NCBI GenBank assembly: GCA_965217895.1 | Contig: CBDCJV010000002.1 | Coordinates: 3,712,001-3,776,000 of the forward strand | Source: Waterburya sp. | GTDB lineage: Bacteria; Cyanobacteriota; Cyanobacteriia; Cyanobacteriales; Xenococcaceae | Length of the DNA stretch: 64,000 bases | Direction of reading: 5' to 3' | In this document: piece by piece, positions 14,023 through 18,325 of the stretch | Numbering within the stretch: position 1 is the stretch's first letter | Layout of the letters: each line of letters begins with the position of its first letter | Notes under the pieces: model-generated | Database searches by the model: none | What the model was told of the DNA's origin: nothing | What the model saw: only the letters and a program-made list of their open reading frames with translations | Program-made: the position numbers and the translations under genes

Positions 14023-14841
14023 ATGGCTACTGGACAAGATACCCTGTGGGAAAAATTTATCCAACCGTTGTTTGGGTTTTTAATCGATCGCGAAGCGTTA
14101 AAAGAACTACACGACAGTATTGACTGGGAAACAGAGGGCGATCGCCTGAGTAATCCTAATTTGATCTATCCTGAATACTATAAATCTCAGAGTTTTCACG
14201 GCATTAAAGGGGGTTATCTTAACTCTAGCGCAGCCGTAACTTACGATCCTGTTACCAAACACGCCTTACCTCCCAATGAAGATTGGAATCGAGAGGCAGT
14301 AATCAAAGCAGTCAAGGGTAATCCTCTTAAAATCATCGATCTTGGCTGTGGAACAGGTTCAACCACGATTATGCTCAAACGGGCTTTTTTTAATGCTGAA
14401 GTTATCGGCTTAGATCTATCTCCGCAAATGCTGGTTATGGCGGAATACAAAGCGCAGCAAGAAAGATTAAATATTCAATGGCTACATGGCTTGGCTGAAA
14501 CAACTAGCTTTGATGACGGCGAATTTGATCTAGTTACCGCCTCATTACTATTTCATGAAACTCCTACTGCAATTTCTCAAGCTGTACTTAAAGAGGGATT
14601 TCGGTTGCTGAAACCAGGAGGACAGGTCATAATTCTGGATGGTCATCAGAAGACTCTGCGTAACACCACATGGCTTACAGACATATTTGAAGAACCTTAT
14701 ATGGAAGAATATGCTAAAGGTAGCGTGGATGCTTGGTTAGGTAAAGCAGGATTTGCTCAGGTATTAACCGAGGATGTTTGGTGGACAAACCAACTAAGTA
14801 CGGGAGTAAAATCGATTAGCAATTTGCAATTGGATAGTTGA
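14023..14841 (+). CDS. Class I SAM-dependent methyltransferase
   Basis: IIDLGCGTG, GLDLSPQML, FDLV, LKPGG. Confidence 0.9.
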   Translation: MATGQDTLWEKFIQPLFGFLIDREALKELHDSIDWETEGDRLSNPNLIYPEYYKSQSFHGIKGGYLNSSAAVTYDPVTKHALPPNEDWNREAVIKAVKGNPLKIIDLGCGTGSTTIMLKRAFFNAEVIGLDLSPQMLVMAEYKAQQERLNIQWLHGLAETTSFDDGEFDLVTASLLFHETPTAISQAVLKEGFRLLKPGGQVIILDGHQKTLRNTTWLTDIFEEPYMEEYAKGSVDAWLGKAGFAQVLTEDVWWTNQLSTGVKSISNLQLDS

Positions 14842-14852
14842 TCAATAAATAT

Positions 14853-15533
14853 ATGGGTTTGAAAGCGGTTTTATTAGATTTTAGCGGTGTAATTATCGAT
14901 GACGAAGAGATAAACCAAGCATTAGTTGCAGAAATAATGCTAAGTGAAAATTTACGAGCTGATGAGTCTGAATATGCTCAATATTGTCGAGGTAGAAGCG
15001 ATCGCGCTTGCTTAAAAGATATCTTAGCTAATCGCGGTCGCATTTTACCTGATGAATATCTTAATAAGCTAATTAAAACTAAATCCAATGGTTACCGACA
15101 GCAAATTGATCGATTAGATGAACTGCCTTTATCTCCTAACTTGGCTGAATTTTTGGTGCAGTTAAAGGAACAAGGTATTGCTATTGGCTTAGTAACTGGT
15201 GCAATTCGTTCTGAAGTTGAGTATATTCTGCAAAAGGCTGAACTAGCAGAATACTTTGATGTCATTGTTGCAGGAGATGACCTCGAACAAAGCAAGCCTG
15301 AACCTGAACCCTATTTGCTGGCTTTGAAAAACCTCAGCTTACAGTCATCAGAGTGTTTAGCAATTGAAGACAACCCTGTAGGTATCGAAGCAGCAAAACA
15401 AGCCAAGATCCAGGTAGTAGGTATTTCTTCTATTTATCCTCTGCATATGTTGCAAAGACAAGCTAACTGGACGGTAGATAATTTTTTAGAAATTGAGCTA
15501 GACAGAGTAGACGAAGTATTGTCCCAAGCTTAA
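14853..15533 (+). CDS. HAD family phosphatase/hydrolase
   Basis: LLDFSGVII motif I variant, VTG, KPEPEPY, IEDNPVGI; ATG at 14853 preferred. Confidence 0.88.
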   Translation: MGLKAVLLDFSGVIIDDEEINQALVAEIMLSENLRADESEYAQYCRGRSDRACLKDILANRGRILPDEYLNKLIKTKSNGYRQQIDRLDELPLSPNLAEFLVQLKEQGIAIGLVTGAIRSEVEYILQKAELAEYFDVIVAGDDLEQSKPEPEPYLLALKNLSLQSSECLAIEDNPVGIEAAKQAKIQVVGISSIYPLHMLQRQANWTVDNFLEIELDRVDEVLSQA

Positions 15534-15604
15534 TTGAAGCTATTTACAATCAATAGTAGGAAAATATAGCTTTTGATATTTAGTGATGAAATAACCGTTT
15601 TAGG

Positions 15605-15647
15605 AGTGATTTTAATCACATGACATTTTATTAGGTAACTTTATACT
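15605..15647 (+). promoter_or_regulatory. CRP-family class II promoter of peptide gene 1
   Basis: AGTGA-ttttaa-TCACA (9/10 to TGTGA-N6-TCACA) at 15605-15620; TATACT at 15642-15647. Confidence 0.65.
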
Positions 15648-15704
15648 GGCTTTACAGGAAGAGATAAAACTTTAACAACTTTTTGAATTTGGTCAGTATA
15701 AATC

Positions 15705-15890
15705 ATGAAAAAACAACTATCTTTTGCCCTACTAACTGTTAGTATTTTTAGTCTTAATATTCTTCCAGCAAAAGCTGTTGATACTAACAACATAGAAATT
15801 ACTGATGTACAGGCTGAATCTAAAGTAATCAGCGATGGTCAATGGTGTGTGGAACTCCCTTTCATGGGCTTGTTCTGTTGGGATCTTTAA
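15705..15890 (+). CDS. 61-aa secreted prepropeptide, copy 1 (signal peptide, acidic spacer, QWC-x9-CWDL core)
   Basis: Sec signal MKKQ...PAKA; paralog of 16125-16310 with synonymous and conservative changes. Confidence 0.85.
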   Translation: MKKQLSFALLTVSIFSLNILPAKAVDTNNIEITDVQAESKVISDGQWCVELPFMGLFCWDL

Positions 15891-15943
15891 AAATTTCTAT
15901 TATTGCTGTTGTTGAAAAATTGTTTTAATCAAATATTTATATT

Positions 15944-15978
15944 AAAAGCACGACTTAAATAGTAAGTCGTGCTTTTTT
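15944..15978 (+). terminator. Intrinsic terminator after peptide gene 1
   Basis: aaaagcacgactta-aatag-taagtcgtgctttt followed by T-run. Confidence 0.85.
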
Positions 15979-16025
15979 GATTGATCGACAATCATTTTAA
16001 TGAGTGATTAAGTAACCGTTTAAGT

Positions 16026-16068
16026 AGTGATCTTAGTCATATAATATCTTATTTAGCAACTTTATACT
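16026..16068 (+). promoter_or_regulatory. CRP-family class II promoter of peptide gene 2
   Basis: AGTGA-tcttag-TCATA (8/10) at 16026-16041; TATACT at 16063-16068, same spacing as copy 1. Confidence 0.6.
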
Positions 16069-16124
16069 GGCTTTATAGAAAAGAAAAAACTTTAACAACT
16101 TTTTGAATTTAGCCAGTATAAATC

Positions 16125-16310
16125 ATGAAAAAACAACTATCTTTTGCCCTATTAAGTGTTAGTATTTTTAGTCTTAATATTCTTCCAGCAAAAGCTATTG
16201 ATACTAACGATTTAGAGATTTCTAATGTTCAAGCTGAATCTAATGCGATCGCTAATGCTCAATGGTGTGTAGAAATTCCTTACATGGGTGTATTTTGTTG
16301 GGATCTTTAA
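16125..16310 (+). CDS. 61-aa secreted prepropeptide, copy 2
   Basis: 47/61 aa identical to copy 1; both Cys and both Trp retained. Confidence 0.85.
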   Translation: MKKQLSFALLSVSIFSLNILPAKAIDTNDLEISNVQAESNAIANAQWCVEIPYMGVFCWDL

Positions 16311-16323
16311 AAACTTCTATTAT

Positions 16324-16576
16324 ACGTCTGGTGTGAATTAAAACTTGCTTTTAGGATAGATTTGGTTATGGAAATATTAGCTTTTTCGAGTTGCAGGAGA
16401 ATAAACACGCCTCCTAAGCTATAAAAAGTGATGAATTTTCACGTAGTTTTCTAAAGCTAATAGCAGGCTTTGGAAAGCCTCGCCTGCACAAAGTGCAGTC
16501 GGCGAACTCCAGTTCGCGCTGATAGCTAATAGCTAAAAACTAGTAAATTAGAGCGAAGCTAATTCACACTAAGCGT
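16324..16576. mobile_element. MITE with 5'-AC ends (IS982-like), 5-bp target duplication ATTAT
   Basis: TIRs acgtctggtgtgaatta / taattcacactaagcgt; ATTAT at 16319-16323 and 16577-16581; the empty site is visible in the paralogous 3' UTR of copy 1. Confidence 0.85.
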
Positions 16577-16608
16577 ATTATTGCTATTATTAGAAAATTA
16601 TTTTAATT

Positions 16609-16641
16609 AAAAACGCGACTTACTGTTTAAGTCGCGTTTTT
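16609..16641. terminator. Intrinsic, possibly bidirectional, terminator between peptide gene 2 and hemA
   Basis: aaaaacgcgactta-ctgtt-taagtcgcgttttt. Confidence 0.85.
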
Positions 16642-16742: not shown

Positions 16743-18029
16743 CTATCCATACTGTTCTTCTGTATCCAAATCAAATAGCATTTGTAAAGAACGTAAACAA
16801 TGACGGCGCGCTTCGATGTCTTGCTGCGCTCTCAACTGCACCATCGGTTCATGAAGAATTTTATTCACAATTCCTCTGGTTAATGCTTCAATTACTTCTT
16901 GGTGCTTTTCTCCAAACTCTGAACCTAAGCGAGATAAAGCTTTTTCCATTTCTTGTTCGCGAATGCTTTCTACTTTACTACGCAAACAGCTAATTGTCGG
17001 AACTGTTTCGAGCGATCGCCACCACAAAATATAATTATTAACTTCTTCTTCGATAATGCCTTCTGCCTCTAGGGCTATCTTACGTCGGCTTTCCTGATTT
17101 GCTGCTACCACTGCTTTAAGATCGTCAACATTATAAGCGTTAACATATTTAATTTCGTTTACGTCGGCTGCAACATTACGGGGAACCGAAATATCAACTA
17201 ACATCAAGGATCTATCCAAAGTTAGTTCAGTTTCTAATTTGGTTCTATTGAGTATCGGTTCAGTAGCTCCAGTACTGGTAAAAACAAGATCCGATGTAGC
17301 AACTGCTTTCATCATCTCGCTAATCGGATAAATAGTAATATTGGCTTGAGCAAACTGTTCGCAGAGTTTTTGCGCCCGTCTGTGGGAACGATTGACGATC
17401 GCAATATCTGTTACGCCTTTAGACAGCAAATGCTTGACTAGCAAGCAAGCCATCTTACCTGCACCAATAATAGCAATGCTATTGGCAGTCAGATTATCAA
17501 CTTTGGTATAGACCAATTCTACAGCAGCCGAACTAATCGAAACTGCACCTGTTCCAATACTAGTTTCGCTACGAACTCTTTTGCCTGTAGAAATAGCTTG
17601 TTTGAATAGGCGATCAAGCAATCTGCCTAGACCTTGATATTTTTGTCCTAGCTTATGGGTATTTTTTACCTGAGCTAGTATCTGTCCCTCTCCTAGAACT
17701 AAACTTTCCAAACCTGCCGACACACGCATCAAATGGCGCAAAGCATCTTCTCTTAAGAGGGTAAACAGGTTAGGGCGAAGTTCCCGCAAGGAAATTTTGG
17801 CTTTCTCGGCTAAGAACTGACTAATTTCTTTAACACCCTGCTCTATATCTAAAGCTACACCATATATTTCTAAACGATTACAGGTGCTAATAATGGCTAT
17901 TTCCTCAATGTGAGGATAACCTTTGAGCGTTGCGATCGCATTTTCTATCTGAGCTTCGGAAATACTTAATTTTTCCCGCACTTCAACTAAGGCAGTTTTG
18001 TGACTTAAACCAACAACTACAATATTCAT
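16743..18029 (-). CDS. hemA: Glutamyl-tRNA reductase
   Basis: [49 protein letters not shown] at 18029 preferred. Confidence 0.97.
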
Positions 18030-18325
18030 TATTTTTGGCAAATTTTGCTCTAATTTAATGTTTATAGCTAGTACCGTATAAAGACTGAGCAATCTATGAC
18101 TAAATGCTCAACATAAATATTAAAGCTAAAGATTTTCTAAATTATAAAGTTACGTATCAATCAATTTTTTTTATTCAAGTTTGAGATGGAAAGAGATCAC
18201 AGCAGAAAATCCTTTTTCTGGCTGTAGATCTTTATCTTCAATCGTTTATACAGTTTTACTGTAGCTGTTTGCGTGTCCACTCAATCAAGATTTACATAAC
18301 TTCAAAGGTGAACACGACTACTCCT

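Follow-up and report, generated by a model that had tools for sequence, protein, structure and literature searches.

In the two-partner secretion (TPS) field, a small gene is known to accompany a TpsA in the case of cdiI, whose product is cytoplasmic, is encoded downstream and binds the C-terminal toxin. Short peptides stapled by disulfides into a beta-hairpin are also known, such as polyphemusin and thanatin, and in the peptide / LRR-receptor pairs of plants, a small secreted peptide lies along a solenoid repeat protein. In cyanobacterial genomes, dozens of FHA-like TPS genes have been filed as adhesins without evidence, and according to the accessible text of one study, a single Waterburya genome contains 23 FHA-like TPS genes (PMC8580901). 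The nearest described circuit is that of Sinorhizobium meliloti (NsrA, the CHASE2 cyclases CyaK and CyaD1-2, and Clr), in which, in the available portions of the reports, a protein-type signal at the outer membrane leads to a CHASE2 nucleotide cyclase with the involvement of a CRP-family regulator, with a plant ribosomal protein serving as the signal and a beta-barrel as its receptor (PMC7529298; PMC13001267). Among cyanobacteria, Dgc2 of Leptolyngbya boryana (CHASE2-PAS-GGDEF) is a CHASE2 diguanylate cyclase devoid of EAL which suppresses motility and biofilm and whose ligand is stated to be unknown, the accessible part of this paper mentioning neither a peptide nor a TPS partner (PMC10581220). 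Regarding promoters, the published excerpts on cyanobacterial CRP sites place a TAN3T box about 22 bp downstream (PMC2633013), give the SyCRP1 site as TGTGA-N6-TCACA and assign SyCRP1 a motility role (PMC10187061). In the SyCRP1 regulon of Synechocystis (cccS/cccP, pilA9-12, ssr2848), as far as the same sources extend, GTGA-N6-TCAC stands about 22 bp before TAN3T in a surface and motility context (PMC2633013; PMC10187061; 10.64898/2026.03.27.713163), the targets including pilin and surface genes (PMC2633013; 10.64898/2026.03.27.713163), and pilin genes are connected with cAMP and c-di-GMP through SyCRP1 (10.64898/2026.03.27.713163).

The locus described here lies in a window of 64,000 nucleotides, the whole stretch analyzed, from Waterburya sp. 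(assembly GCA_965217895.1, contig CBDCJV010000002.1, positions 3,712,001 to 3,776,000); the genome of the window is designated G000, with C1 and C2 as its contigs, and other G numbers are the genomes compared. It encodes a peptide which is real, conserved and undescribed, the duplication of its gene being ordinary, and the finding is the putative partnership of this peptide with a TPS protein. The candidate partner, TPS750 (C1:54405-56669 in G000), is a TpsA-like beta-helix protein of about 750 aa which, like FHA, HMW1, EtpA and CdiA, combines PF05860/TIGR01901 with a beta-helix, and a ShlB-type TpsB gene stands beside the TPS gene in G046 and in genomes of another family (f9). Compared with the NsrA circuit, the candidate signal would be self-made, the candidate receptor a TpsA-like beta-helix and the output a GGDEF-EAL protein. 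In contrast to CdiI, the peptide is encoded upstream, has a Sec signal and is predicted to form a disulfide hairpin, which the model places on the stalk of the helix; the upstream gene and the Sec signal, together with TPS partners showing only PF05860 and no recognised toxin domain, led us to reject a CdiI-type immunity protein. The peptide resembles polyphemusin, thanatin and the ligands of plant LRR pairs by analogy only, with no significant sequence or fold match, and as far as searched it is homologous to no SyCRP1 target in the accessible text of the papers cited above. Among the papers listed by the literature searches, which covered few subscription journals, none describing the gene cluster or a peptide-TpsA pair was found, nor any TpsA beta-helix binding a self-made peptide.

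The features of the tandem locus are collected in Table 1, the repeat unit starting at about 15577 (unit 1) and 15998 (unit 2). The initial annotation of this DNA had reported two 61-aa ORFs with 47 of 61 residues identical, a signal part differing at one of its 24 positions (23 identical), a concentration of 10 of the 14 differences within aa 25-45, and core differences restricted to L/I, F/Y and L/V exchanges plus three synonymous codons. All these figures were reproduced, as was the inclusion of upstream DNA in the duplicated unit and the preserved pairing of the terminator stems: both terminators form a perfect 14-bp stem with a 5-nt loop (z about -6), in which substitutions are compensated. 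A strict terminator scan of the locus returned none, probably because the T run was counted into the stem. Between the cores of the two copies, pN is 0.075 versus a pS of 0.625, a comparison based on only 8 synonymous sites. A search of G000 for a third peptide copy found none, and an Rfam search gave two chance matches and nothing else.

Table 1. Coordinates of the tandem peptide locus (positions within the window)
Feature	Position	Strand	Remarks
GTGA half-site, upstream, unit 1	15583..15586	+	about -70; GTGA kept in 22-25/29 aligned copies at same offset
CRP-type palindrome GTGA-N6-TCAC, unit 1	15606..15619	+	centre -41.5; layout matches that in the accessible text of PMC2633013
-10 element TATACT, unit 1	15642..15647	+	putative transcript start near 15654; that of unit 2 near 16075
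Peptide copy 1, 61 aa	15705..15890	+	Sec signal 15705-15776, linker 15777-15839, C-x9-C core 15840-15887
Terminator-like stem-loop, unit 1	15944..15976	+	still present in relatives with copy 1 deleted
GTGA half-site, upstream, unit 2	16004..16007	+	
CRP-type palindrome GTGA-N6-TCAT, unit 2	16027..16040	+	
-10 element TATACT, unit 2	16063..16068	+	
Peptide copy 2, 61 aa	16125..16310	+	core 16260-16307; orthologue of closest relatives' single intact copy
MITE-like repeat	16324..16575	.	downstream of ORF2, ahead of terminator 2; flanked by TATTAT on each side; terminal inverted repeats imperfect
Terminator-like stem-loop, unit 2	16609..16641	+	common to unit 2 and convergent hemA
Flank: HAD-family hydrolase	14838..15533	+	neighbour conserved no further than closest clade
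Flank: hemA (glutamyl-tRNA reductase)	16743..18092	-	convergent; marks old peptide-gene position in genus and in G363

Several smaller elements accompany the two units. The upstream GTGA half-site, around -70, is by its sequence a possible second CRP-family site. The 252-bp MITE-like repeat has 48 blastn matches in G000 and is missing from the same site in G023; it contains a nested shorter repeat, and one full-length copy is found at C2:1150721. Just before the start codon stands an inverted copy of the -10 region (15640-15651/15691-15702 and 16061-16072/16111-16122), which amounts to a minus-strand TATACT restricted to the closest clade and could be an antisense promoter. A 5'-UTR hairpin formed by this inverted repeat was rejected, since the repeat overlaps the -10 box and the putative leader folds no better than shuffles (z +1.0 and +1.6).

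The tandem pair as such, on which the initial annotation had centered, proved incidental. The gene of G023, G020 and G019 is identical to copy 2 at 47-50 of 61 positions and to copy 1 at 40-43, and the duplication is older than the split of G000, G023, G020, G019 and G017. Copy 1 is a broken pseudogene in G023, has been deleted down to its tail and terminator in G020 and G019, and is deleted in G017, where the start of the promoter is fused to the terminator. Lost or broken in four of the five genomes of this clade, copy 1 is dispensable; it may still be used in G000, where it is intact and its core pN is below pS. The tandem copy would be a decaying duplication, at most raising the dose. Independent duplications are found in G010, G035, G358 and G277, the peptide of the latter standing in tandem upstream of the TPS gene. 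The G013 copy (L086:1980-2185) is frameshifted in the linker, and G035 and G367 carry extra partial copies with intact promoters (L084, L317).

Regarding the peptide itself, M1, P21, A24, C48, G55 and C58 are invariant in 31 aligned rows and W47 is present in at least 90% of them. Pooled over 435 pairs, which are non-independent, pN/pS is 0.32 in the core and 0.42 in the signal; gene conversion in the signal region was discarded as unneeded, this region being slow in all pairs (2-6/72 nt). Core sequences vary by lineage. The linker measures 12-28 aa without a residue common to all, and it is almost absent from the 43-aa orthologue of G012. AlphaFold predicts a signal helix, a disordered linker and hairpin strands at 46-51 and 55-60 (pLDDT 67-78). 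With orthologues genus-wide and both Cys invariant, the earlier view of a genuine, conserved and, judging from its signal, secreted peptide that would fold into a disulfide-closed hairpin is upheld. Other traits ascribed to it do not extend beyond the window: the 'acidic spacer' has a charge of -6 to +8 and the supposedly 'not cationic' mature peptide one of -8 to +9 across 30 copies (-6 for both window copies), and cleavage before Gln46 is not borne out by a position which orthologues fill with Q, E, N, K, A, I or R. As positive net charge is not conserved over this range, the cationic beta-hairpin antimicrobial class was rejected.

A single-query search found the gene in 31 of 36 genus genomes and in none of 24 genomes of other families, and a 31-row profile in 33 of 38 genus genomes, normally as a single copy (the match in G354 and one in G024 covering the signal peptide only). 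With the profile run on the full library, 42 proteins were retrieved, nearly all of them peptides of the same build with 48-106 aa; the named homologues are 'hypothetical protein' entries of Pleurocapsa, Waterburya, Chondrocystis, Myxosarcina, Xenococcus and Stanieria, all of them baeocyte-forming cyanobacteria. Judged by sequence score, 300 genomes of the phylum and 400 of the order yielded none outside the family, the profile matches there being dismissed as hitting only the signal peptide of long ORFs. In agreement with the initial statement that no family was recognised, both copies are without Pfam match at E up to 10, NCBIfam gives nothing above cut-off (the divergent peptides of other genera likewise have no Pfam or NCBIfam family), and a PDB sequence search gives nothing below E 0.07; the WGxxGxxG family NF041742 was rejected, with 12.8 bits against a curated cut-off of 35 and a match limited to the signal peptide. 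Foldseek with the peptide model returned nothing below E 5, and the best ESM Atlas scores (0.84 and 0.83) were under the lead level. None of 7999 candidates is a longer fused form, which, within the limits of this search, is weak evidence against the peptide being a remnant of some larger protein.

Within 1.5 kb of 30 loci, the neighbours vary (hemA, dihydroorotase and others), none being common and none a modifier; no transporter or immunity gene is conserved beside the peptide at these loci. The lack of an adjacent modifying enzyme seen in the window therefore holds at all 30 loci, and as no such enzyme is conserved beside the gene, the peptide is not considered a RiPP. The 'RiPP-like' label is further weakened by the linker, since no leader/core cleavage motif (e.g., double-Gly) was found and the Sec signal is followed by a stretch without shared residue. 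P0040 is a 579-aa protein with eight C-x3-P-x2-G-x2-C-W-D hairpin repeats much like the core, separated by Lys/Asp-rich linkers, and is treated as convergent. Peptides of the same kind are mis-annotated as 'protochlorophyllide oxidoreductase' at L310:6314-6475 and L312:10574-10732; at L309, the peptide gene adjoins a divergent ORF whose start presumably resembles a short-chain oxidoreductase.

The gene had also been called self-contained, a description that no longer fits, as a conserved activator site and a conserved partner gene accompany it. All 30 parsed copies, which leave out locus L006 (its genome has the pattern), show GTGA-N6-TC[AG][CT], exactly 22 nt and TA[CT]ACT. This spacing centers the palindrome at -41.5, and the class II CRP layout (box at -41.5, 22 nt before the -10 hexamer) is thus common to the 30 copies. 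Of the 38 genus genomes, 32 contain the exact pattern, with 45 matches, 38 of them preceding a peptide gene or a piece of one, a count that is partly circular as the pattern was derived from these same loci; the reversed control pattern gave 2 matches in 61 genomes. The exact pattern is absent from G034 and G006, two complete genomes also without the peptide gene, and the divergent peptides of other genera mostly have the same layout with a spacing of 22 or 23. Genome-wide in G000, the combination of box, 22 nt and -10 is not enriched (11 intergenic sites vs 2-9 at other spacings). A CRP with a cAMP pocket and a CAP-like R-E-x-x-x-R recognition helix is encoded at C2:4951785-4952492, one of 12 CRP-family genes with strong scores in this genome; an SyCRP1-like CRP is the candidate factor for the peptide promoter. 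A third match of box, 22 nt and TATACT lies outside the window at G000:C2:677761, before a small ORF and a pentapeptide-repeat gene, and is kept in G019 and G020.

The candidate partner gene was recognised from other lineages. In 18 genomes of eight genera or lineages, a gene of one TPS clade is immediately preceded by a peptide of this build; of these genomes, 12 are family genomes from 6 other genera (G348, G349, G353, G355, G356, G358, G362, G364-366, G369 and G370) and 6 belong to 2 other families (G046; and G277, G122, G633, G221 and G627 of f9). The other-genus peptides that gave weak profile matches have a shorter core and stand about 80-440 nt upstream of a gene for a TPS-domain protein of 660-780 aa. 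The profiles missed the peptides of G348/G349, G046 and the five f9 genomes, which came to light only when the DNA preceding the TPS gene was inspected; the f9 and G046 peptides are taken as homologous from their build and position and not from a sequence score. In a predictive check, a peptide preceded 3 of 20 further family TPS loci, G348 and G349 (both with C-x9-C) being from a genus that the profiles had missed; among 20 TPS loci of other families, the one with a peptide was G046, the best out-of-family match to TPS750, and when the G046 protein served as query, a peptide was present at 5 of 27 loci, these being all five rows of family f9. The TPS750 of G000 is 47% identical to the G366 protein and has a full-length orthologue in most genus genomes, where it is unlinked, with a peptide upstream at 0 of 23 loci. 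In a FastTree analysis of 62 TPS rows, which leaves out G353, G356 and several peptide-less loci as too short, 33 of the 36 peptide-less rows form a clade (support 99) containing none of the 15 peptide-linked and 11 unlinked TPS750 rows; the latter 11 fall inside an 18-row clade (99) with 7 peptide-linked rows. Linked states occur in both deep groups outside the genus in a quick, unrooted recN tree without outgroup, which favors linkage as the older state without proving it.

The order DUF928 / divergent CHASE2-GGDEF-EAL / peptide / TPS / ShlB-type TpsB is found in G046, G122 and G221, the G046 cluster being additionally followed by TPR-CHAT, and in G355, G356 and G353 a ShlB orthologue lies at most 4 kb from the peptide-TPS pair. 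G000 has best matches of all cluster genes, scattered and with 40-56% identity: DUF928 and CHASE2-GGDEF-EAL are still divergent (C2:2012958-2016505), and ShlB (C2:1739955) and TPR-CHAT (C2:107565) are orphans. ShlB and CHASE2 orthologues persist in the peptide-less G034 and G006 and thus do not track with the peptide. Furthermore, seven genus genomes (G011, G021, G029, G026, G028, G005 and G368) keep the peptide without a TPS750 orthologue, their best TPS matches having E values of 1e-22 to 1e-37 versus 1e-86 for a true orthologue, and hence the partnership is not obligate; each of them holds 12-21 other TPS paralogue matches, which could substitute for TPS750. Core erosion following TPS750 loss was rejected: the seven cores score lower (p 0.03), but so do the signal peptides (p 0.013), which points to relatedness. 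In some genera, hairpin terminators stand between peptide and TPS gene, so that their co-transcription is not assured.

Other small ORFs were observed near TPS genes. At L301 and L302 (G231, G560), short ORFs with double-glycine-type leaders stand directly before other TPS genes, and at L285 (G468) a 130-aa secreted protein with a Cys pair precedes one; peptides of other types may thus be paired with other TPS clades. In G359 (L324:8128-8604), CHASE2-GGDEF-EAL and a TPS gene are separated by a 158-aa ORF rich in Ser, Trp and Asp, which repeats a 13-residue unit and is devoid of a signal peptide. As to contig C1 of G000 (87 kb), housekeeping-type genes surround TPS750; G019, G020 and G023 carry the orthologue of TPS750 on the main contig, and C1 is probably an unplaced piece of the chromosome.

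Structure prediction supports, at the level of a model, the binding of the peptide to TPS750. The complex was predicted for one pair (aa 25-61 of copy 1 and aa 33-751 of the G000 protein) and scored 0.85 (0.84, 0.87 and 0.85), with 0.00 for the best of three controls, which included no paralogous TPS; 116 of 157 solved pairs attain the score mark, as do 2 of 215 mismatched ones, counts which are only rough for our own alignments. The runs share at least 63% of contacts, with a partner pLDDT of at least 57. In the model, contacts from the peptide involve only aa 45 and 47-61, i.e., the conserved core and not the linker, and they face one side of the TPS750 beta-helix (aa 260-464), where positions 314, 348 and 382 meet core residues 49, 51 and 57. 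These ladder positions, chosen after the model was seen, carry a hydrophobic residue in 21, 23 and 27 of the 27 orthologues, versus 0-1 of 27 for six equivalent rungs; all three are hydrophobic in 9 of 11 unlinked TPS750, 3 of 15 peptide-linked and 0 of 36 peptide-less rows. Conservation of the modelled interface is not above that of the rest of the helix (0.61 vs 0.65; 0.74 vs 0.71 within the genus). Searches of the PDB by sequence or fold found no like complex, making recall from a solved pair unlikely.

On these grounds, we consider it probable that the peptide is a CRP-controlled, Sec-exported, disulfide-stapled hairpin with TPS750 as its binding partner, in the periplasm or on the surface. 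A cAMP-bound SyCRP1-like activator would switch the gene on from a class II promoter, the factor being deduced and the site and its spacing resting on conservation. Sec export and a signal-peptidase cut after AKA, as read from the sequence, would release a 37-aa peptide, the two Cys of which would be oxidised outside the cytoplasm and staple the C-terminal beta-hairpin of the model, with the linker as a passive tether. The hairpin would rest against one side of the TPS750 beta-helix, where exposed hydrophobic residues form a ladder, and its binding would alter the action of TPS750 at the envelope. More tentatively, TPS750 may be the input of a TpsB / TPR-CHAT / DUF928 / CHASE2-GGDEF-EAL chain setting c-di-GMP and hence motility versus adhesion, a relay deduced from the ancestral gene order alone. 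For a peptide pheromone or quorum-sensing system, gene order and the model thus offer TPS750 as a candidate receptor. Taken to its full extent, this would be a self-signalling system with a hairpin ligand, a TpsB-displayed TpsA-like receptor, a TPR-CHAT/DUF928 relay and a CHASE2-GGDEF-EAL output, in which a CRP-cAMP loop times baeocyte motility and settling, a proposal we regard as possible rather than probable.

The same gene-order and model evidence would also suit a structural or housekeeping partner of TPS750 without signalling, either a periplasmic cap or chaperone over the hydrophobic stripe during TpsB export or a switch masking the sticky face of an adhesin. Both proteins pass through the periplasm, the CHASE2 and ShlB genes do not follow the peptide, and the nearest folds of TPS750 are the adhesins EtpA and HMW1 (weak matches, E 0.01-0.03). 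A chaperone should, however, stay co-regulated with its client, whereas the peptide has its own CRP-type promoter and terminator, the CRP pattern stands upstream of 0 of 23 unlinked TPS750 genes, and the cores differ between lineages, as with specific ligands; we hold this alternative, which has the binding step in common with the preferred reading and differs in the absence of signalling, to be somewhat unlikely. If the TPS link were merely historical, the peptide would be a CRP-regulated secreted factor with another target, such as a membrane-sensor pheromone, a pilus or surface component or a narrow-spectrum inhibitor. The seven genomes devoid of TPS750, the unlinked state of all genus loci examined and the pilin and surface genes among the SyCRP1 targets in the accessible texts favor this explanation, but peptide and TPS genes are still neighbours in three families, the modelled contacts fall on the core and not on the linker with clean controls, and the paralogues of those seven genomes could substitute, which makes it unlikely.

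A beta-hairpin antimicrobial peptide or a RiPP precursor would account for a disulfide hairpin rich in aromatics, for a weak polyphemusin-1 match (E 0.77) and for the cationic orthologues. Net charge is, however, not conserved and is negative in the window copies, no modifying enzyme, transporter or immunity gene is conserved, and the gene, present mostly as a single copy, has been passed down within the genus instead of showing a patchy distribution, so that this possibility is very improbable. The initial preference for a ligand over a classic antimicrobial is thus supported.

With a 16-residue synthesizable core, a named partner and a binding face, the questions of CHASE2 ligands and of FHA-like TPS function become directly testable. 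Even on the weaker reading, two-partner secretion would gain a new class of accessory component, and its gene would be a clean CRP target throughout the lineage. The peptide may be a self-made signal, as yet undescribed, which governs the change between motility and adhesion and, if this is true, the large, unexplained cyanobacterial families of FHA-like, CHAT, DUF928 and CHASE2 genes would be receptor modules for diverse peptides, akin to plant LRR receptors.
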